From contig CP179888.1 in NCBI GenBank assembly GCA_047456305.1, positions 253,307 to 317,306 of the forward strand: a stretch of 64,000 bases of DNA. The letters run 5' to 3'. Positions 2,860-56,720 of this stretch are shown piece after piece. The DNA comes from Candidatus Nealsonbacteria bacterium (GTDB taxonomy: Bacteria > Patescibacteriota > Minisyncoccia > Minisyncoccales > CAZKCU01). The position numbers and the translations under genes are program-made. Position 1 is the stretch's first letter. Each line of letters starts with the position of its first letter. The notes below the pieces were generated by a model. The model had not been told where the DNA came from and did not search any database. It saw only the letters and a program-made list of their open reading frames with translations.

Positions 2860-4407
2860 ATGCCGTCTAAAATTTTCTCAGCTGCCATAGTTGGTTTAGA
2901 CGCCCAAATTATTGAAGTAGAAGTCGATGCCTCATATGGATTGAGGCATTTTGAAATTGTCGGCCTGCCAGATAAAGCAGTCGAGGAATCAAAGGAAAGA
3001 GTGGGGACGGCAATAAAAAGTTCCGGCTTTCAATCTCCCCATCATCAGCCAATTCGGGTTTTGGTAAATCTTGCTCCAGCTGATTTAAAAAAAGAAGGGT
3101 CTTTATATGACCTTTCTATTGCTTTGGGTTTTCTGGTGGCTTCAAAACAAATAAAATTTGACCCGACAGATAAAATTTTTTTAGGTGAGCTGGCTTTAGA
3201 TGGAAAATTAAGACCGGTTAAAGGAACACTTTCTATTGCTCTGGCAGTAAAAAATGAAGAAAATTTTTCTGAAATAATCTTGCCCAAAGCCAATGCTCCA
3301 GAAGCTGCTCTGGTTTCTGCCAGAGTTTCAGGTTTAGACAGAAAAAACTTTAAGGTAGTTGGTGTCGAAAACCTGAAAGAAACTATTGATTATTTAGAGG
3401 GAAAAATTCAGCTATCTTCTTTTAAAGCGAAAATTAAGGATTTTTTTGGAAAACCGAATTATCCTGTTGACTTAGGATTCATTAAAGGACAGGAATATGC
3501 CAAAAGAGCTTTGGAAATTGTTGCTGCCGGAGCTCATAATCTTTTGATGGAGGGGCCTCCGGGCGCCGGCAAAACCCTTCTGGCTAAAGCCATCCCCTCT
3601 CTTTTGCCCCCTCTTTCTTTTGAAGAGTCATTAGAAGTTACAAAAATTTATAGTGTGGCCGGCCTCCTGCTGAAAGAAAAGCCTCTCTTAAATCTCAGGC
3701 CGTTCAGGTCTCCCCACCATGCTTCCTCAGAAGTTGCCTTAATTGGCGGCGGTAATCCTCCCAGGGCAGGAGAGATAACTTTGGCCCATCGGGGAGTTCT
3801 GTTTTTGGATGAATTCCCCGAATTCCATCGGGATGTTCTGGAAAGCCTCCGCCAGCCGATTGAAGAAGGGAGAATCACAATTTTAAGAGCAAGGCATTCC
3901 CTGACCCTGCCAGCCCGCTTTACCCTGGTAGCGGCAACCAATCCCTGTCCCTGCGGATACTACGGTGACCCAGAAAAGAAATGTAGCTGTACCCCTTCTC
4001 AAATTTCAATGTACCGTCGAAAACTCTCTGGACCTCTGATGGACAGGATTGACCTTTTTATTAATGTTCCCCAGTTAAAATACGAAAAACTGGCAGCTCC
4101 GGATGAGGAAAATAGGAGTTTGAGAATAAGAGAAGGAGTTGAGATCGCTCGCCGGATTCAACGAGAAAGATTCAAGAAAGAAAAAACCAACTCTGAGATG
4201 GAGTTTTCCCAAATAAAAAAATATTGTCAGATTGATTTAAAATCTCAAAATCTTCTGAGAAACTATGTCAATTCTGGCAAGCTTTCTGCCCGGGGTTATC
4301 ACCGAGTTTTAAAAGTGGCCAGAACCATTGCTGATTTAGATAACTCAGAGAACATTTCTTATAACCATTTAAGTGAAGCTTTAATGTATAGAATAAGAGA
4401 AGCCTAA
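2860..4407 (+). CDS. comM: Mg-chelatase-like ATPase, YifB/ComM family
   Basis: Lon-like N-terminal domain, Walker A GPPGAGKT, Walker B VLFLDEFPEF, CPCGY Zn motif, 515 aa. Confidence 0.9.
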   Translation: MPSKIFSAAIVGLDAQIIEVEVDASYGLRHFEIVGLPDKAVEESKERVGTAIKSSGFQSPHHQPIRVLVNLAPADLKKEGSLYDLSIALGFLVASKQIKFDPTDKIFLGELALDGKLRPVKGTLSIALAVKNEENFSEIILPKANAPEAALVSARVSGLDRKNFKVVGVENLKETIDYLEGKIQLSSFKAKIKDFFGKPNYPVDLGFIKGQEYAKRALEIVAAGAHNLLMEGPPGAGKTLLAKAIPSLLPPLSFEESLEVTKIYSVAGLLLKEKPLLNLRPFRSPHHASSEVALIGGGNPPRAGEITLAHRGVLFLDEFPEFHRDVLESLRQPIEEGRITILRARHSLTLPARFTLVAATNPCPCGYYGDPEKKCSCTPSQISMYRRKLSGPLMDRIDLFINVPQLKYEKLAAPDEENRSLRIREGVEIARRIQRERFKKEKTNSEMEFSQIKKYCQIDLKSQNLLRNYVNSGKLSARGYHRVLKVARTIADLDNSENISYNHLSEALMYRIREA

Positions 4408-17425: not shown

Positions 17426-17887
17426 TTAGGGATATGGTCTCACTACCACTCTTCTTTCTGGTTCTTGACCTATGCTTTCTGTCGTAACATTAGTTCTTGC
17501 CGCTAACTCCAAATGAATAATCCTTCTTTCATAGGCTGGCATTGAAGGAAGCTGTTTTTCTTTTTTTGACAGGGCTACCTCGTCAGCAGCAGCTCTTGCC
17601 ATTTCTTTTAAATAGTCAATTTTTTTCTTTTTATAATCTGAAATATCAAGGTCAATAAAAAAAGGTTCTTCAATTTGTCTTTTTAATATTGCCTTTAAAA
17701 GATGCTGGATTTCAGTTAGGGTCTGACCTCTTTCTCCGATTAAAATCTGAGGCTCTGAAGTCTTTATATTTATGGGAATGGTTTGGTCTTTCTGGGGCAA
17801 AATTTTAATTTCTACTTCAAAAGTCATCTTTTTAAAAAACTCTTCAACAGTTTCTTTAATTTTTTTAAGGCTATTTTGATTAAGCAT
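17426..17887 (-). CDS. jag: Jag/KhpB-type RNA-binding protein (KH + R3H)
   Basis: KH-like ILIGERGQTLTEIQHLLK and R3H-like ERRIIHLELA...TESIGQEPERRVVV. Located downstream of yidC. Confidence 0.85.
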   Translation of the reverse strand: MLNQNSLKKIKETVEEFFKKMTFEVEIKILPQKDQTIPINIKTSEPQILIGERGQTLTEIQHLLKAILKRQIEEPFFIDLDISDYKKKKIDYLKEMARAAADEVALSKKEKQLPSMPAYERRIIHLELAARTNVTTESIGQEPERRVVVRPYP

Positions 17888-18632
17888 GGTGTTTGAAAGT
17901 AATATATTGTTGGACTATTGAGAATAATGCGACCACTAACCAATAAAGGGCGACTGCTGCTGGAAACCGCCAAAGAATAAAAACTGTGAAAATTGGAAAG
18001 AAATAAAGCATCTGTTTTTGCATCATTTGAGAAAAATCGGACGAGCCTTTTTTTACTGATTTTTGCTTTGGCGTTACCATTTTTGTCTGAAAAAATTGAG
18101 CGATTCCAGCTCCAATTATTATCGCTATATTCGGCCAAAGCAAATGAGAAATTCCATTTACTTTAACAACAGCCGATTGAGTAAGATTTGTTATCCCTAA
18201 AAAAGTAGTATCAATCTGCCCGGGGTTGGGAACAAAGCTGTATAAAAAACTAAGCTGGTTTTCCCCAAATCCTCTCCAAAAAAGTCGGTAAAGAGCGATT
18301 AAAATTGGGAGCTGAACAATCAATGGTAAACATCCTGAGAAAGGATTAATCTTTTCTTTCTTATAAAGTTCCATTGTGGCCCTGGCCTGTTTTTCTTTAT
18401 CGTTTTTAAATTTTTCCTGAATTTCCTTTATTTTGGGCTGAAGATTAGAAAGTGCTTTTTGGGATTTAGCTCCTTTGGTTCCTAAAGGATAAAGAATAAT
18501 CTTAATTAAAATTGTTAAAGCAATAACTGCTATCCCAAAATCATGCCCCGGTAAATATTGATAGAGCAAAATCAGGGCATTAAATAAAGGCTGGTATAAT
18601 ATTACGTTAAAGGCGTTAATAAATAAATCCAT
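17880..18632 (-). CDS. yidC: Membrane protein insertase YidC (short, Gram-positive/Oxa1-like form)
   Basis: 250 aa. Motifs LQPKIKEIQEKFKNDKEKQ...ELYKKEKINPFSGCLPLIVQLPI. Sits in the rnpA-yidD-yidC-jag synteny. Confidence 0.9.
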   Translation of the reverse strand: MDLFINAFNVILYQPLFNALILLYQYLPGHDFGIAVIALTILIKIILYPLGTKGAKSQKALSNLQPKIKEIQEKFKNDKEKQARATMELYKKEKINPFSGCLPLIVQLPILIALYRLFWRGFGENQLSFLYSFVPNPGQIDTTFLGITNLTQSAVVKVNGISHLLWPNIAIIIGAGIAQFFQTKMVTPKQKSVKKGSSDFSQMMQKQMLYFFPIFTVFILWRFPAAVALYWLVVALFSIVQQYITFKHHA

Positions 18633-18648
18633 TTTTATTTATGGTTCA

Positions 18649-18704
18649 CCCCGTTAAATAATTCCGCTTTCAGCGGAATTGCTGCAAAGCAGCATTTAAC
18701 GGGG
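18649..18704. repeat. Nested three-way hairpin element, copy A
   Basis: 11-bp outer stem ccccgttaaat/atttaacgggg encloses the hairpins aattccgc-tttca-gcggaatt and gctgc-aaa-gcagc. Contains the yidD stop codon. Confidence 0.85.
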
Positions 18705-18908
18705 TAAATCTACTCCCCCAGGATTCCAAGGGTGACACTTTAATATCCTCTTTATTCCTTTTTTGGTGCCTATTACCGGGCCGTATCTCTTAATAGTTTG
18801 GTAGGTGTATTCTGAGCAACTGGGATAAAAACGGCATCTTTTACCAAAGTTTGGCGAAATAAAAATTTGATAAAATTTAATAATTTTTAAAATTATTTTT
18901 CCGAACAT
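18696..18908 (-). CDS. yidD: Membrane protein insertion efficiency factor YidD
   Basis: FYQIFISP...[19 protein letters not shown]...[17 protein letters not shown] 18908 preferred over the TTG at 18929. Confidence 0.9.
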
Positions 18909-18917
18909 TTTTATCGG

Positions 18918-18939
18918 AGCACATAACAATTTATGTACT
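18918..18939. repeat. AGCACATAA/TTATGTGCT palindrome family, copy 2
   Basis: agcacataa-caat-ttatgtact lies between rnpA and yidD. Confidence 0.75.
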
Positions 18940-18943
18940 CGAT

Positions 18944-19282
18944 TTAGATTATTTTTGCTTTTTTAAAAAGCTTATTTACTATTTCCTTAATTTCCTGAAA
19001 ATCCTTGGTTTCCAATCCTGGCCTGGCTATTACTACTCCGTCTATCCCTTTTTTAATTTCATTTAGTTTTATTCTGACTGACTCTCTTAATCTTCTTTTT
19101 ATTTTGTTGCGTAAGGTAGCTTTTTTAAAGAAAGTTTTACTAACCACAAAACCAAAACGGCTACTCTTTAGATTATTTTTTACTTTTTTTAGAACCAAAA
19201 AATCTTCTTTAAATCCTTTTCCCTCTTTAAAAACTTTTTCAAAATCTTTGTTTTTTTTTAGTCGGTTTTCTTTAAACAACAT
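18944..19282 (-). CDS. rnpA: Ribonuclease P protein component
   Basis: 112-aa basic protein with [16 protein letters not shown]...[22 protein letters not shown], directly downstream of rpmH. Confidence 0.88.
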
Positions 19283-19319
19283 CTAAAAAAATTTAAAATG
19301 TTTAGCTCAGCTTGAGATT

Positions 19320-19454
19320 TTAGACTGTGAGTTTTCGTCTCCCTTTTTTCCTTCGTCTAGTTAAAATCCTTTTACCTCCTTTAGTTTTCTTTCTTCTCAA
19401 AAACCCATGGATACGTTTTCTTTTTTTCCTTTTTGGCTGAAAGGTAATACTCAT
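19320..19454 (-). CDS. rpmH: 50S ribosomal protein L34
   Basis: Not in the ORF track because it is 44 aa. Translation by hand gives [44 protein letters not shown], which matches the L34 signature TFQP..RKR...HGF. Confidence 0.93.
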
Positions 19455-19456
19455 AA

Positions 19457-19515
19457 TTCAAGAATATATATTTTTATTTCTTAGCGAATCAAGGTTCTCG
19501 CCGAAGGCGAGGTTC
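19457..19515 (-). repeat. Promoter-hairpin cassette, copy 1 (upstream of rpmH)
   Basis: Minus strand reads gaacCTCGCCttcGGCGAGaaccTTGATTcgctaa-N-tatatattcttgaattATG. Shares about 35 nt with the copy at 20260. Confidence 0.8.
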
Positions 19516-19581
19516 ATATTTCTATTTTACTTAAACTTATAACAAAGTCAATTCATTTCCTTGATTTGTCATGGCTGTATG

Positions 19582-19608
19582 ATAAAAGTCAGGCAAGTTT
19601 GCCTGACT
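19582..19608 (-). terminator. Rho-independent terminator after tRNA-Arg
   Basis: Perfect 10-bp palindrome agtcaggcaa/ttgcctgact, followed on the minus strand by ttttat. Confidence 0.7.
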
Positions 19609-19631
19609 AAGGACTTTCATCCCATTTAAGA

Positions 19632-19703
19632 TGCCCTCGGTAGGAATCGAACCTACATCTGAAGCTCCGGAGGCCTCTGTTTTATCCATTAAACTACGAA
19701 GGC
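19632..19703 (-). tRNA. tRNA-Arg (anticodon CCG)
   Basis: Hand-folded 72-nt cloverleaf. Acceptor GCCTTCG/CGAGGGC, D stem GTTT/AAAC, anticodon stem GAGGC/GCTTC with loop CTCCGGA, T arm GTAGG-TTCGATT-CCTAC, discriminator A. CCA is not encoded. Confidence 0.9.
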
Positions 19704-19746
19704 ACAAAAGGGACGGGGTAATTCTACATCTCTTTAATTACCCGAA

Positions 19747-50402: not shown

Positions 50403-51752
50403 TCAGATGCTAAAAACAAGTTGCCTGATTAACTCAATTTCTTCCTTTAAATTTTCGTTTGTTTCAAGTTCTTTTAAAATTTTCTTGTAGGAATGAATAG
50501 CTGTGGTATGGTCTTTTCCCCCTATTTTCCTTCCTATAAAAGGGTAGGAACTTTTTAAGTCTTCCCTTAATAAATACATCGCAATCTGGCGAGGTCTGAC
50601 GATTTCTCTTTTACGTGAGGAATCTAAAAGGTTATTTTCTTTAAGGTCGTAAAACTTAGCTACCGCCCTGATTATTTTTTTCGGTGTGGCTATTTTAGTT
50701 GGAGAAAAGAGTAATTTTTTAAGCAAAGATTTAGCTTCTTCGGGCTCTAAGGATTGGTTATTTAACTTTTGATAAGCGACTAATCTGTTCAAAGCTCCTT
50801 CAAGTTCCCTAATATTTCTTTGGATGTTTGATGCGATATAGACAAGAGTTTCTTCGGGAGGGCTAATTTTTTTTTCTTGGGCCTTTGTTTTAAGAATAGC
50901 CATTCTTGTTTCGAAATCAGGATAACCAATATCAGCTATCATTCCTCCCTCAAACCTAGACCTTAGTCTCTCCGTGAGTGCAGGGATAGCCTTTGGGGGC
51001 CGGTCAGAGGAAAGAACTATTTGTTTATTTCTTTCGTAAAGGGTATTAAAAGTATGGAAAAACTCTTCTTGGGTTTTTTCTTTCCCAGCCAGAAATTGAA
51101 CATCATCAATAATAAGGACATCTATCGCCCGGTATTTCGTTTTAAAACTTTCCATAGTATGATTTTTAATTGCCGTTACCACCCCAGAGGTGAATTTTTC
51201 AGAAGGAATATATTTTAATTTTTTTTCTGGAAAATTTTTAGTTATCTCATTACCGATTGCCTGCAGTAAATGGGTTTTGCCGAGACCCACCCCTCCATAA
51301 ACAAATAAAGGATTGTAGATAAGGCCAGGATCTTTTGAGGATGCCCAGGCAGCGGCCTGTGGTAGTTCATTAAAAGGGCCGACTACAAAATTTTCAAAAG
51401 TATAGCGGGGGTTAAGATTAGTATCTTTGTCAATTTTTAATTCTTGAAACTCAAGCTGGTCCGATTCTGGGTAAGAGAAAGAGGGTTTTTTAAAAACTTT
51501 TAATCCCTGTCGGACAACAGTATATTTAATCTCTTTAATTTCTTCGTCCAAACTATGCAAGAGTTTAAAAATAATTTTGTTGTATTTATTTTCAAGCCAC
51601 TCTTTGGCAAAAGAATTGGGAACAGAAACTATAACCTGGCCTTCTTTCTGAGAAAGAATCCCGGTATTTTTAAACCATGTACTAAAATTAGCCTGGGAAA
51701 TATTTAATTGGATTTGGGCCAAAACCGTCTGCCACAATTCCTCCTTGGTCAT
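50403..51752 (-). CDS. dnaA: Chromosomal replication initiator DnaA
   Basis: Walker A GGVGLGKTHL, IDDVQFL, sensor motifs, C-terminal DNA-binding KDHTTAIHSYKKI. A GGGGA SD lies 7 nt upstream. Confidence 0.95.
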   Translation of the reverse strand: MTKEELWQTVLAQIQLNISQANFSTWFKNTGILSQKEGQVIVSVPNSFAKEWLENKYNKIIFKLLHSLDEEIKEIKYTVVRQGLKVFKKPSFSYPESDQLEFQELKIDKDTNLNPRYTFENFVVGPFNELPQAAAWASSKDPGLIYNPLFVYGGVGLGKTHLLQAIGNEITKNFPEKKLKYIPSEKFTSGVVTAIKNHTMESFKTKYRAIDVLIIDDVQFLAGKEKTQEEFFHTFNTLYERNKQIVLSSDRPPKAIPALTERLRSRFEGGMIADIGYPDFETRMAILKTKAQEKKISPPEETLVYIASNIQRNIRELEGALNRLVAYQKLNNQSLEPEEAKSLLKKLLFSPTKIATPKKIIRAVAKFYDLKENNLLDSSRKREIVRPRQIAMYLLREDLKSSYPFIGRKIGGKDHTTAIHSYKKILKELETNENLKEEIELIRQLVFSI

Positions 51753-52060
51753 AAGTGTTCCCCTAAAATTAAAAGATAAAATATTTTTGCGTTTTTAATT
51801 ACGCCTTAATTTTTTGGTTTTTCTTTCTTAATAAATTATACCACAAAGTCAATCGGATAGTAAAATAAACATCAAATTCAGAAAGATGTTAATAAACTGG
51901 GGAGAACTTGTGGGTTATAAAAAACTTAATAGTCGGTTAATATTCTAATCCAAATTAATAGAAAATTTCTGAAAAGAATCAACGGGAAAGAAATATATTG
52001 CCAACACTTTCCTTAAACTCAAACAGGTTGACAGATATTTTTAGGAGGTTAATAATAAAA

Positions 52061-52218
52061 GTGAGGGGGTGCGAGGGAATCTCCTCTAAGGACACGGTTT
52101 TAATGGAGGAGGTTTGAGGTACGTGCCTGGTTACGTCCGACACCAGTGAGTCTCTGATAAACTGATATCATTAAGGCCGCTCCCCCTCACTAAAGAAGAG
52201 GTGCTTCACCTCTTTTTT
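52061..52218 (+). ncRNA. Candidate structured RNA or riboswitch-like leader with an intrinsic terminator (family not identified)
   Basis: GC-rich island. The closing stem gtgaggggg(t)gcg / cgc(t)ccccctcac encloses ~105 nt with internal helices (cuccuc/gaggag, cugg/ccag, gaua/uauc). It is followed by aagaggtg-ctt-cacctcttTTTT at 52196..52218, 30 nt before ATG 52248. Confidence 0.45.
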
Positions 52219-52247
52219 AGTTTTTAAAGATGTGTTAAACTAAAAAT

Positions 52248-52820
52248 ATGAGATACAAAATTGCTGTTTCTGGAGCAGCCCAGATTGGCCATTGCTGTAA
52301 GGGGATTAAGGAGTTGTCTAAAAAAATTGGGCGAGAAATTTTTCGCCAAAATTGTGTCCTGGTTACTGGAGCTACAACCGGTGTCCCCTATTTTGCTGCC
52401 TTAGGATGTAAGGAGGTGGGAGGATTCAGTATTGGTTTTTCACCAGCAACCTCTGAAGCCGCCCACTTAAAAAGATATAAACTTCCAGTGGATGCTTTTG
52501 ATGTAATGGTTTATACCGGCGCTGATTATGTGGGGAGAAATGTAATTATGACAAAGGCAGTAGATGGAGTGATTATTATCTGCGGGAGAATGGGGACCTT
52601 GCATGAATTCGCCACTGCTTTTGAAATTCAAAAACCAATTGCGGTTTTAGAAGAAACAGGGGGAACGGCTGATAAAATTAAGAAGATTGCCACTGGTCCT
52701 TATCGAGGGGTTAAAAAAATTATTTATGAAAAAAATCCCAAAGAATTGGTAAAAAAATTAATTGAATTAATTAAAAAAGAGAAAAAAGAAAATTCTAAAC
52801 TAAAAGGTCGACTCAAATAG
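52248..52820 (+). CDS. TIGR00725/LOG-like Rossmann-fold nucleotide-binding protein
   Basis: IAVSGAA...LVTGATTGVPYFAALG...GVIIICGRMGTLHEF pattern. Confidence 0.6.
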   Translation: MRYKIAVSGAAQIGHCCKGIKELSKKIGREIFRQNCVLVTGATTGVPYFAALGCKEVGGFSIGFSPATSEAAHLKRYKLPVDAFDVMVYTGADYVGRNVIMTKAVDGVIIICGRMGTLHEFATAFEIQKPIAVLEETGGTADKIKKIATGPYRGVKKIIYEKNPKELVKKLIELIKKEKKENSKLKGRLK

Positions 52821-54221: not shown

Positions 54222-56720
54222 ATGCAATTCTTCGCTGATTTTCATCTACATTCAAAATATTCAAGAGCGACCTCTCCTCAGATGGATTTGGAAAATCTTG
54301 ATAAGTGGGCAAAAATTAAAGGAATAAAAGTTTTAGGGACTACTGATTTTACCCATCCTATTTGGTTTAAAGAGTTAAAGGAGAAATTAGAACCTGCTGA
54401 GCCAGGTTTATTTAAATTAAAAAATTCAGATTCAGAAACCCGTTTTATTTTAACTACAGAAATTAGCTGCATTTATTCAAAAAAAGGAAGGGTTCGAAAG
54501 ATTCATATTATAGTTTTTGCTCCTGATTTTAAAACAGTTGAAAAAATTAATACCCATTTGGGCTGGATTGGGAATCTAAAATCAGATGGCCGGCCAATTT
54601 TAGGATTAGATGCCAAAGAATTAGCAAAAATTGTTTTAAATGTTTCCGATAGTTGTTTAGTAGTACCTGCTCACTGTTTATTGCCTAATACTTATCTTCA
54701 TAGTAATCTAGGGATCAAAATGATAAAAGATATATCTGTAGGTGATCGTGTTTACACGCATGAAGGGCGATTTAAGAAAGTAGAAAAAGTTTATACAAGA
54801 GCTTATAAAGGGCAAATTTATAACATAAAACCTTACTATTTTAGGATAGGGTTGAAAACTACTTCTGAACATCCTTTTTATATAATTAAGACTCATTGGT
54901 GCCCTAATATGGGGCATACTATTTGCAAGAAGAGTTGTGCCTTTATTGATCACAGTAGTTGTTCTTATAAGTATTTTGAAAATTATCAACCTAAATGGAT
55001 ACAAGCGAAAAATATTAGAAAAGGAGATGTTCTGATTTTTCCTCGCTTTAATAAAATTATTAAGAATATAAAGGAGATAAAACTTAATAGATATTTAAAG
55101 CGAAGCGAATATCAATTAGAAAGAAATTTTATAAAAGCTGCTAGTGGTACCAGAGCGAACTTTATACCCAATACAATAAAAATAACTAAGGGGTTTTGCA
55201 GATTAGTTGGTTATTATTTGTCCGAAGGATATACAGATTATAGAGATTCTGTTTCTTTCTGTTTTAATGAGAAAGAAAAAGATTATATTGAGGATGTAAA
55301 AAATTTGATGGCGAAGATATTTCATCTTTCCTATTGTCGGAAATACAAAAGAAAAAGTAGCAAAAGTACAGAATTAATATTTTTCTCAAAACCTCTCGCT
55401 CAGATTTTTGGTAGATTATTCTATGATGATTCTATTTTAAGAAGAGCCCATACGAAGTGTTTACCCCATTGGATGTTGAATTTACCGCTAGACAAACAGG
55501 TAGAAATTTTAAAAAGTTGGTGGTGGGGAGATACGGGATGTACTTCTTCAAGGATGTTGATGAATCAAATGAAAATAATTTGTCTTAGACTAGGAATAAT
55601 TCCTTCTATTAATCAACAATCTAAAGAAGATTTTAATGAGAAATATGCTCATAAGCATAAAATAGAAGATAGGACTATTTGGGCACAACACGATCATTTT
55701 CATTTCTACGGACTCTCATTTTTCCAAGATTTATTTGGGTTATTGGAAACTTCTGAATTTAAAAAATTTAATACTAAACTTCATCGAAGACATGGATGGA
55801 TTGATGAGGATTATGTTTATATGCCGATTCGCGATATTGAAATCACAAATTATAAAGGAAAGGTTTATAATTTAGAAGTAGAGAAAGATAATTCTTATGT
55901 TAGTGAATTTGCAACAGTTCATAATTGTTGGACTCCATGGTTTGCTTTGTTTGGTTCAAAATCAGGGTTTGATTCAATTGAAGAATGTTTTGAAGATTAT
56001 TCAAAATATATTTTTGCCGGCGAAACTGGGTTATCTGCGAACCCGAAAATGTTTTGGCGGATGCCTGATGGTCGAAAACTTAGTTTAATCTCAAACAGTG
56101 ATTCACACAGTCCGGCCAAGTTGGGCAGAGAAGCAAATGTTTTTGACACGGAATTGAGTTATAATGCGATAATAGAAGCCATTAAACAAAAAGACCCTCA
56201 AAAATTTTTATACACCATTGAATTTTTTCCCGAAGAGGGCAAATATCATTTTGACGGCCACAGGAATTGCAATATAAGTTTAAGTCCGGCTGAAACCAAA
56301 AAATACAATGGAATTTGTCCTCGCTGTGGAAGACCCTTAACTGTTGGAGTTCTAAATCGAGTTGAACAATTAGCCGACCGGCCCGAGGGATTTAAGCCTC
56401 AAGGTGCCATACCTTTTAAAAGTTTGATTCCTTTGGCAGAAATAATTGCTGAAGTTTTAGGTGTTGGGGTTGGCACAAAAGAAGTAGAAAAACAATACAA
56501 GGACCTGATTGAAAAATTCGGTTCAGAATTTAATGTTTTGCTTAACGTTTCTGTTTCTGATTTGAGAGCAGCAACTTTGCCCGAAATTGCCGAAGCCATT
56601 TCAAGAGTCCGCGAGGGAAAAGTGAGTGTTGAGCCAGGCTACGATGGAGTTTATGGGAAAATCAGGATTTTTTCGAAAGGTGAGAAAAAAGACTTATCTC
56701 GCCAAGGAACCTTGTTTTAA
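54222..56720 (+). CDS. EndoQ-like PHP-domain nuclease (TIGR00375-type) interrupted by an intein
   Basis: N-extein FADFHLHSKYSRATS...GTTDFTHPIWF...VVPAH. C-extein CWTPWFALFGSKSGFDSIEE...SNSDSHSP...CPRCGRPLTVGVLNRV. The exteins total about 415 aa. Confidence 0.85.
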   Translation: MQFFADFHLHSKYSRATSPQMDLENLDKWAKIKGIKVLGTTDFTHPIWFKELKEKLEPAEPGLFKLKNSDSETRFILTTEISCIYSKKGRVRKIHIIVFAPDFKTVEKINTHLGWIGNLKSDGRPILGLDAKELAKIVLNVSDSCLVVPAHCLLPNTYLHSNLGIKMIKDISVGDRVYTHEGRFKKVEKVYTRAYKGQIYNIKPYYFRIGLKTTSEHPFYIIKTHWCPNMGHTICKKSCAFIDHSSCSYKYFENYQPKWIQAKNIRKGDVLIFPRFNKIIKNIKEIKLNRYLKRSEYQLERNFIKAASGTRANFIPNTIKITKGFCRLVGYYLSEGYTDYRDSVSFCFNEKEKDYIEDVKNLMAKIFHLSYCRKYKRKSSKSTELIFFSKPLAQIFGRLFYDDSILRRAHTKCLPHWMLNLPLDKQVEILKSWWWGDTGCTSSRMLMNQMKIICLRLGIIPSINQQSKEDFNEKYAHKHKIEDRTIWAQHDHFHFYGLSFFQDLFGLLETSEFKKFNTKLHRRHGWIDEDYVYMPIRDIEITNYKGKVYNLEVEKDNSYVSEFATVHNCWTPWFALFGSKSGFDSIEECFEDYSKYIFAGETGLSANPKMFWRMPDGRKLSLISNSDSHSPAKLGREANVFDTELSYNAIIEAIKQKDPQKFLYTIEFFPEEGKYHFDGHRNCNISLSPAETKKYNGICPRCGRPLTVGVLNRVEQLADRPEGFKPQGAIPFKSLIPLAEIIAEVLGVGVGTKEVEKQYKDLIEKFGSEFNVLLNVSVSDLRAATLPEIAEAISRVREGKVSVEPGYDGVYGKIRIFSKGEKKDLSRQGTLF
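54675..55925 (+). mobile_element. Intein (417 aa) with a LAGLIDADG homing-endonuclease domain
   Basis: Starts at Cys (CLLPNTYL...GDRVYT), block B TTSEHPF, LAGLIDADG motifs LVGYYLSEGY and ILKSWWWGDTG, terminal KVYNLEVEKDNSYVSEFATVHN followed by +1 Cys. 1251 nt, in frame. Confidence 0.85.

Follow-up and report, generated by a model that had tools for sequence, protein, structure and literature searches.

The window, a stretch of 64,000 nt from a Candidatus Nealsonbacteria bacterium, carries a GC-rich island of about 130 nt between dnaA and a SLOG cluster4 / TIGR00725-like gene (Table 1). The GC content is 0.48–0.49 at 52050–52199, compared with 0.23–0.31 in the upstream intergenic DNA. The + strand of 52055–52225 has a minimum free energy of −67.8 kcal/mol against −47.4 ± 3.4 kcal/mol for 200 dinucleotide shuffles (z = −5.97), none of which equalled it, and the − strand of the same region has a z of −4.17. 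The initial annotation had proposed a structured RNA with its own terminator at 52061–52218; its neighbouring genes are correctly named, the island is as described and the features it listed are all present there. The SLOG gene is followed by a gene for a 91-aa EF-Tu-domain-2-like beta-barrel protein and then by one for an MgtC-family protein. Among proteins of solved structure, those closest to SLOG4 are a Thermotoga hypothetical protein and Moco carrier proteins.

Table 1. Features of the RNA gene and its flanks, in window coordinates
Feature	Position	Strand	Description
dnaA	50403–51752	−	Flank of the RNA gene
RNA promoter	52028–52056	+	TTGACA 52028–52033, 17-nt spacer, AATAAT 52051–52056; 11 of 12 consensus matches
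Structured RNA core	52061–52192	+	132 nt; limits from the covariance model
P1, 5' strand	52061–52069	+	GUGAGGGGG; pairs with 52182–52190; 95.7% of cells paired over 8 pairs
P2 hairpin	52073–52086	+	GAGG / CCUC, loop GAAUCU; covarying pairs
Pseudoknot, 5' strand	52090–52093	+	GGAC; pairs with GUCC 52135–52138 in the P4 loop
P3, 5' strand	52095–52106	+	CGGUUUUAAUGG; pairs with 52168–52179
P3–P6 internal loop	52107–52110	+	Unpaired, conserved AGGA; opposite R-A at 52164–52165
P6, 5' strand	52111–52115	+	GGUUU; pairs with AAACU 52159–52163
Palindrome 1	52119–52126	+	GUACGUGC, extendable to AGGUACGUGCCU at 52117–52128; proposed intermolecular helix
P4 hairpin	52127–52146	+	CUGGU / ACCAG; 10-nt loop UACGUCCGAC holds the pseudoknot 3' strand GUCC (52135–52138)
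Palindrome 2	52148–52154	+	Weak, odd-length GAGUCUC, directly 3' of P4
3' strands	52159–52190	+	P6 52159–52163, P3 52168–52179, P1 52182–52190
Intrinsic terminator	52195–52218	+	Stem GAAGAGGUG / CACCUCUUU, loop CUU, U-run; hairpin 52195–52215, T-run 52213–52218
SLOG promoter and start	52233–52250	+	TGt-TAAACT, −10 box 52236–52241, 6 nt, ATG 52248; not part of the RNA
SLOG cluster4 / TIGR00725-like gene	52248–52820	+	Flank of the RNA gene; ATG at 52248

Searches with the RNA against 80 dnaA loci from GTDB species, using nhmmer and blastn, matched only L001, the closest of these loci, with a DnaA 92% identical to that of the window; the covariance model agrees, finding none elsewhere among them. 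Fuzzy motif matches in three further loci (L027, L073 and L054) were coding-like sequence on inspection. The dnaA of other relatives faces rpmH-rnpA-yidD-yidC instead of the RNA. By its DnaA protein the window falls among Nealsonbacteria-like Patescibacteria. With the SLOG protein as the search anchor about 95 loci were collected, approximately 85 of them with enough upstream DNA, and in 78 of these, from Nealsonbacteria-like Patescibacteria, the RNA immediately precedes the SLOG gene and shares its strand. Homologues in this position are found in L001, among L081–L097 and among L098–L177. The 78 loci yielded 64 distinct sequences of 120–135 nt for alignment. Under the covariance model R1 these members score 64–128 bits on the + strand, and the reverse strand never exceeds 21 bits; the window RNA scores 98.1 bits (E = 2.9e-23, + strand) and is the sole match, a single copy, within the 64-kb window. 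The members belong to a single clade, within which SLOG identity is 76% or more; a second protein search, begun with the most divergent SLOG protein (L169), yielded nothing below 74% identity.

In most loci the gene just upstream of the RNA is tRNA-Arg(CCG). The tRNA-Arg(CCG) of the window is located at 19630–19704 (−) and is followed by rpmH-rnpA-yidD-yidC-jag (17426–19704, −). Since the rpmH set of the relatives faces dnaA, an inversion of about 32 kb appears to have occurred in the lineage of the window, L001, L081 and L088, with breakpoints between dnaA and rpmH and between tRNA-Arg and the RNA promoter. The RNA moved together with the SLOG operon in this inversion. The position of the RNA beside dnaA is a lineage-specific outcome of this inversion and is incidental.

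The SLOG operon also occurs without an adjacent RNA, in L165/167/168, L174/175 and L089, and the SLOG / beta-barrel / MgtC operon is intact in the first two of these groups. In L141 (1–321) the RNA locus is cut down to the TTGACA promoter, approximately 45 nt, ...GGGCTCACTAAA and a terminator, beside an intact SLOG operon; it resembles what a deletion within the RNA gene would leave behind. L089 (1–1180) encodes a SLOG protein identical to that of L088, and has upstream of it an unrelated ORF and no RNA, the upstream identity of the two being confined to the last ~45 nt before the ATG. This difference reflects either rearrangement at the strain level or a chimeric assembly.

The closing stem of 12 bp that had been described for the island is present, formed by gtgagggggtgcg (52061–52073) and cgctccccctcac (52178–52190) with one U-U mismatch, although only its outer 8–9 bp are family-wide and constitute P1. 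In its inner part, GCG/CGC pairing is in competition with the outer pairs of P2 and P3, with P3 favoured by covariation. In the family consensus P1 is 8 bp and GAGGGGG-rich, with an innermost pair that is GC in 55 sequences and AU in 7. The pairs of P2 covary (15–26: AU 43, GC 18; 17–24: AU 34, CG 12, GC 9), and the consensus has a single-stranded aGGRca between P2 and P3. The pseudoknot is 94.1% paired compared with 87.3% in shuffles (0 of 500 as good), while slid controls pair at 5–54%. Its third pair is AU in 47 sequences, GC in 9 and CG in 2, and the pseudoknot as a whole covaries as GGGC:GCCC and GGCC:GGCC. P3 has 12 pairs, 91.1% paired, ten of them with both sides changed.

The internal loop between P3 and P6 is conserved at columns 55–57 (G in 59, G in 61 and A in 61 of 64) and at column 130 (A in 61 of 64). 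For this aGGA / RA loop, which is symmetric (5 x 5), a canonical k-turn was considered and on that account rejected. Pairing in the upper P6 helix is 91.8%, with pair 59–127 as GC 49, AU 7 and CG 3 and pair 62–126 as CG 24, UA 20 and AU 5. Both sides change in all four pairs of P4, as in 83–106 (GC 20, AU 12, GU 10, UA 5); its overall pairing is only 71.5%, owing to a one-column register shift between clades. P6, palindrome 1, P4 and palindrome 2 mostly abut one another, separated by few linker bases or none. The 3' tail after P1 is a conserved ACUA/ACCA-like sequence (columns 160–162: C 45, U 41 and A 54 of 64).

On the MAFFT alignment 81.7% of cells are paired, compared with 72.4% in shuffles, and 35 of 48 pairs are changed on both sides. 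The model-fitted alignment, which leans toward the model structure but with which the MAFFT and alignment-free results agree, gives 86.0% against 72.2%, with 39 of 48 pairs changed on both sides. No shuffle of 500 was as good in either case, the shuffle controls being ones that ignore phylogeny. When the 3' partners are slid by 1–3 columns the pairing falls to 38–53%. The members come from one fairly narrow clade, in which the SLOG protein is at least 76% identical, and some of the covariation counts therefore reflect shared ancestry. The covariation supports a conserved fold that comprises P1, P2, the 12-bp P3, P6, the P4 hairpin and the GGAC:GUCC pseudoknot. Conservation and covariation among relatives, on which the initial annotation had made its candidate depend, are clearly seen in the 64 distinct homologues, with 35 or 39 of the 48 pairs changed on both sides, depending on the alignment.

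The frequent G-U pairs are compatible with the + strand only. This bears on the alternative that the conserved feature is not an RNA at all but an element of the DNA itself, for instance a set of operator palindromes or a structure tied to an origin next to dnaA. The copy in the window does lie within the dnaA upstream region and does contain palindromes; in most relatives, however, it is far from dnaA. The long-range compensatory changes are strand-specific, with many G-U pairs, and the model scores of 64–128 bits drop to 21 or less on the reverse strand. The palindromes also vary in sequence, unlike a protein operator. A DNA-level element is for these reasons extremely improbable.

A TTGACA and a TAnnnT box are present at the same distance from P1 in nearly all of the 63 homologous loci inspected, with the layout cTTGACA, ~17 nt, TAnnnT, ~6–7 nt and P1. 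The predicted start of the window RNA, at about 52061–52063, falls on the first bases of P1. At the other end, the terminator is directly after the RNA as had been reported, although its stem is 9–12 bp and not 8. Its hairpin begins 4 nt past the closing stem in the window and 4–6 nt past P1 across loci, and its T-run ends 29 nt before the ATG of the SLOG gene, which agrees with the gap of ~30 nt first given. A hairpin and U-run follow the RNA in nearly all loci, with stem sequences that are unrelated (GAAGAGG.., CCCGUUAGAG.., GGGAAG.., GACGAGAAA.. and AUAGCUAA..). Comparison of the homologous loci revealed no conserved complementarity or alternative pairing between the terminators and the fold. 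The positionally conserved promoter 5' and the intrinsic terminator 3', both recognised by consensus matches, are those of a stand-alone small RNA gene.

Between the end of the RNA and the SLOG ATG lie 43 to 206 nt, depending on the locus, and the longer spacers contain inserted palindromic repeats. In many loci such repeat elements, of 50–150 nt, part the terminator from the ATG. One type of palindromic repeat unit, CCCGTTAGA...TCTAACGGG, is the terminator of the RNA in some loci (L001 3525–3560; L087, L111, L123, L127 and L131) and a MITE-like insertion of ~50–75 nt before the SLOG start in others (L105, L107, L112, L117, L136 and L164).

A −10 box, often TGnTAAAAT-like, is positioned 5–8 nt before the SLOG ATG in most loci, including those that lack the RNA. 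The SLOG mRNA therefore looks leaderless. This would be in keeping with the genome as a whole: a Shine-Dalgarno-like motif (GGAG/GAGG/AGGA at −20 to −5) is found in only 3 of the 49 window ORFs of at least 150 aa, and many of the 49 have TAAAAT, TATAAT or TAAACT 5–8 nt before the ATG. Most genes of this genome would therefore seem to have leaderless transcripts. Against this Shine-Dalgarno-poor background the conserved internal AAGGAGG of the RNA stands out. The arrangement of promoters and terminator argues that the RNA gene and the SLOG operon are probably separate transcription units.

The initial annotation had taken the order of structured RNA, terminator and gene as typical of a riboswitch; the structured RNA and its terminator stand, but this reading of them is not supported. 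In a terminating riboswitch, an aptamer for a nucleotide-like ligand would set the read-through of the terminator into the SLOG/LOG-like operon. The RNA is like such riboswitches in having a P1-closed, pseudoknotted and covariation-backed fold with conserved unpaired purines, followed by a terminator and a metabolic gene, and the enzyme family encoded downstream handles nucleotides. The order of RNA, terminator and gene is seen, in the same orientation, in 78 loci, and the RNA remained beside the SLOG gene when an inversion exchanged all of the DNA upstream. A conserved expression platform is nevertheless absent: none of the terminator stems shares bases with the conserved fold or has complementarity to it, and a conserved switching helix is therefore lacking. 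The variable spacer interrupted by repeats, the −10 box of the downstream gene itself, the apparently leaderless mRNAs and the operons that remain intact where the RNA is missing likewise argue against a cis-acting riboswitch, which is improbable. Where mRNAs appear to be mostly leaderless, an aptamer-like RNA and a terminator ahead of a metabolic gene thus do not suffice to identify a riboswitch.

The raiA motif RNA has a similar history. Conserved, structured and found ahead of a single gene family, it was at first suspected of being a riboswitch; since a terminator of its own and the promoter of the gene come between the two, it is now regarded as an independent small RNA. This RNA is ~200 nt and is found in Firmicutes and Actinobacteria, and palindromic self-pairing is not known for it. 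The window RNA resembles it in its upstream position, but differs in fold, size and phyla, and Rfam would detect a raiA motif.

At gathering scores, the only Rfam 15 match in the whole window is a tRNA at 19632–19703, and the same search of seven homologous loci gave only tRNA. With the threshold relaxed to E ≤ 10, positions 51760–52300 gave only terminator-to-miRNA noise, and L115 and L132 only noise. No Rfam 15 family fits the RNA, including riboswitches, SRP, 6S, tmRNA, RNase P, ldcC, raiA, OLE, ROOL and GOLLD, in line with the earlier failure to match it by eye to a known consensus. A literature search returned no relevant description of a TIGR00725-associated RNA or a CPR small RNA. By these comparisons of sequence and model, the RNA is a member of a family absent from the RNA catalogues. 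It has no conserved ORF, each of the three + frames having at least one stop in 54–60 of the 64 sequences, and the longest ORFs of the members differ in strand and position. A 54-aa GTG ORF antisense to the RNA (51979–52143, −) is not conserved in relatives and was taken as spurious.

A divergent version of a known housekeeping RNA (SRP/4.5S, 6S, a tmRNA piece, an RNase P fragment or a tRNA-like RNA) might be missed by such models in a poorly sampled taxon. The strong promoter, the tRNA gene that adjoins the RNA in most genomes and the G-C-rich terminal stem of 8 bp followed by ACCA or ACUA would all be in keeping with this. The terminal stem and tail are, however, the only likeness to an acceptor end. 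ARAGORN found no tRNA or tmRNA gene in 51700–52400, three divergent members have no Rfam match even at E ≤ 10, and no SRP domain IV motif, 6S-type central bubble or T-arm is visible by eye in the RNA. Beside the operon the RNA is absent or decayed in some genomes, which is unexpected of an essential RNA unless a copy is located elsewhere. A missed housekeeping RNA is accordingly very improbable.

Directly 5' of P4 every member has a self-complementary sequence, palindrome 1, which is usually 8 nt. Treated as a helix with a zero-nucleotide loop it is 93.0% paired, compared with 57.1 ± 2.3% in shuffles, and its covariation score of 0.84 is the highest in the RNA. The central bases, which are adjacent to each other, pair in 57 of the 64 sequences and do so as GC (21), UA (16), AU (11) and CG (8). 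Pairing is 88.4% on the MAFFT alignment and the palindrome is also found alignment-free. There are 27 distinct versions, including GGAUAUCC, GGACGUCC, GCAGCUGC, GCAAUUGC, GAAGCUUC, GUAGCUAC, GCACGUGC, GGAAUUCC, UGCUAGCA and GAACAUGUUC, and at least 13 different perfect 6-nt palindromes were counted by eye at this position. The version in the window needs two G-U pairs. The 64 RNAs contain 94 perfect Watson-Crick palindromes of 8 nt or more, where dinucleotide shuffles contain 29.6 ± 5.3.

Palindrome 2 of the relatives is 8–16 nt, as in GUUUAAAC, GUUCGAAC, CGAAUUCG, GAAAUUUC, GAAGCUUC, GUUUGAAC and AAAAUUUU. With G-U pairs allowed, a palindrome of at least 6 nt is present here in 62 of the 64 sequences, its length being even in 47 and its centre a single base in 15. 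The evidence for palindrome 2 is weaker than that for palindrome 1, and the palindrome itself is less regular, imperfect or odd-centred in approximately a quarter of the sequences, including that of the window. The odd-centred versions could be small hairpins. A long hairpin, CUAGGUUUGAACUUAG, was considered for palindrome 2 and rejected as not family-wide, its outer pairs being absent in other clades.

Adjacent bases of one chain cannot pair together, so the simplest reading of palindrome 1 is pairing with a second molecule. Its sequence varies yet stays self-complementary, from which a homodimer is inferred. These features suggest that two copies of the RNA may pair through their palindromes. 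Given the contiguity of P6, the palindromes and P4, two molecules paired through both palindromes would form two four-way junctions joined by two short helices. The gain in RNAcofold homodimer energy over shuffles, calculated for 12 members, gave z scores from −4.5 to +1.6 with no consistent difference, which speaks neither for nor against a dimer.

An RNA with its own promoter and terminator could also be a monomer that binds protein, for example SLOG4, the beta-barrel protein or a partner from a housekeeping machine, with the palindromes serving as small hairpins or protein sites. The conserved purine-rich internal loop and the conserved 3' tail are both typical of protein sites, palindrome 2 could be a hairpin of 3–4 bp in the 15 sequences where it is odd-centred, and the cofold energies lend dimers no support. 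However, a hairpin would not select for self-complementary bases at adjacent central positions, where four pair types are used in 57 of 64 sequences. A protein site would be expected to keep its sequence and not its palindromy, whereas at least 13 perfect 6-nt palindromes (by eye) occupy the one position. A monomeric, protein-binding small RNA is consequently unlikely, though worth keeping in mind.

Self-complementary sequences that pair two copies of the same RNA are present in the dimer initiation sites of retroviruses and in the dimerisation loops of the oskar and bicoid mRNAs. Those palindromes are in hairpin loops of long viral RNAs or mRNAs; the window RNA is small and bacterial and has two internal palindromes.

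The argument from adjacent bases has been used for the OLE and GOLLD RNAs, in which loops that bridge chains were seen by cryo-EM (Kretsch et al., Nature 2025, PMC12286853). Palindromic positions covary, adjacent bases included, in OLE L9.3 and GOLLD L21a (GGCC / GAUC / AGCU and GC / CG), and such palindromic covariation is taken there as the signature of symmetric intermolecular pairing (PMC12286853). Palindrome 1 bears the same signature more strongly: its self-complementarity is kept by covariation, adjacent bases included, as is the case for homo-oligomeric RNAs. The RNA is also like OLE, ROOL and GOLLD in being a stand-alone structured RNA of unknown function, but those RNAs are several hundred nt long and from other bacteria, while the window RNA is ~130 nt, from CPR, and its oligomer is predicted from sequence. 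The palindromes of OLE, ROOL and GOLLD are located in hairpin loops and form kissing loops; those of the window RNA would be 8-nt internal strands flanking a junction hairpin. Rfam shows no sequence or model similarity to any of the three.

The region 52061–52192 is probably a stand-alone gene for a structured non-coding RNA of ~130 nt, the representative of an uncatalogued family in Nealsonbacteria-like Patescibacteria (CPR), with its own promoter and terminator and a P1-closed pseudoknotted fold, which would act in trans as a homodimer. The near-consensus sigma-70-type promoter would drive transcription from the first bases of P1 and the intrinsic terminator would end it, both ends being predicted. 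The transcript would form a three-way junction of P1, P2 and P3, with P3 running through the purine-rich aGGA / RA loop into P6. P6 would close a junction that holds palindrome 1 of 8 nt, the P4 hairpin and palindrome 2 free of linkers, while GUCC in the P4 loop would pair with the GGAC between P2 and P3 as the pseudoknot. Palindrome 1, and probably palindrome 2, would pair with the same palindrome of a second molecule, generating a homodimer that is symmetric and domain-swapped, or perhaps an assembly of higher order, and this would act in trans. The best guess from gene order is a functional link with the SLOG4 / small beta-barrel / MgtC operon that involves no cis regulation. Whether this would be a partnership with the proteins of the operon or the sensing in trans of a nucleotide-like molecule is a matter of guesswork.

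The CPR/Patescibacteria have tiny genomes, and almost no non-coding RNAs have been described in them beyond the universal ones. An RNA that is strongly promoted and tightly conserved in such genomes likely does something important. Conserved quaternary structure made of RNA only has been shown only recently, and only for the very large RNAs OLE, ROOL and GOLLD. It is tentatively proposed, at slightly less than an even chance, that this CPR-specific RNA of ~130 nt has a conserved quaternary structure and is the smallest natural bacterial RNA known to have one. It would be a symmetric domain-swapped dimer, or a chain or ring, held together by an internal palindromic helix on either side of a pseudoknotted hairpin, and would work with the adjacent LOG-like SLOG4, beta-barrel and MgtC proteins. 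If this is true, a 130-nt example is easy to synthesise, mutate and solve, and the questions of why bacterial RNAs self-assemble and of what their assembly does become directly testable.

Other features of the window and of related loci were observed. The AT-rich, dnaA-proximal part of the intergenic region, at 51753–52027, is ~85–90% identical to that of L001 (by eye) and has the DnaA-box-like words ttataccaca and tgtgggttat; it may be a replication origin. The dnaA-rpmH intergenic region of L009 (~3720–3920) carries direct repeats of tttttccgcccaaggcggatccgcc, which are located ~200–400 nt upstream of dnaA and read in the opposite orientation. At 54222–56720 (+) of the window, a TIGR00375 / MJ0043_C-family (PHP-domain, EndoQ-like) gene is split by an intein, and an intein-free version of this gene, ~395–420 aa, is found in relatives.
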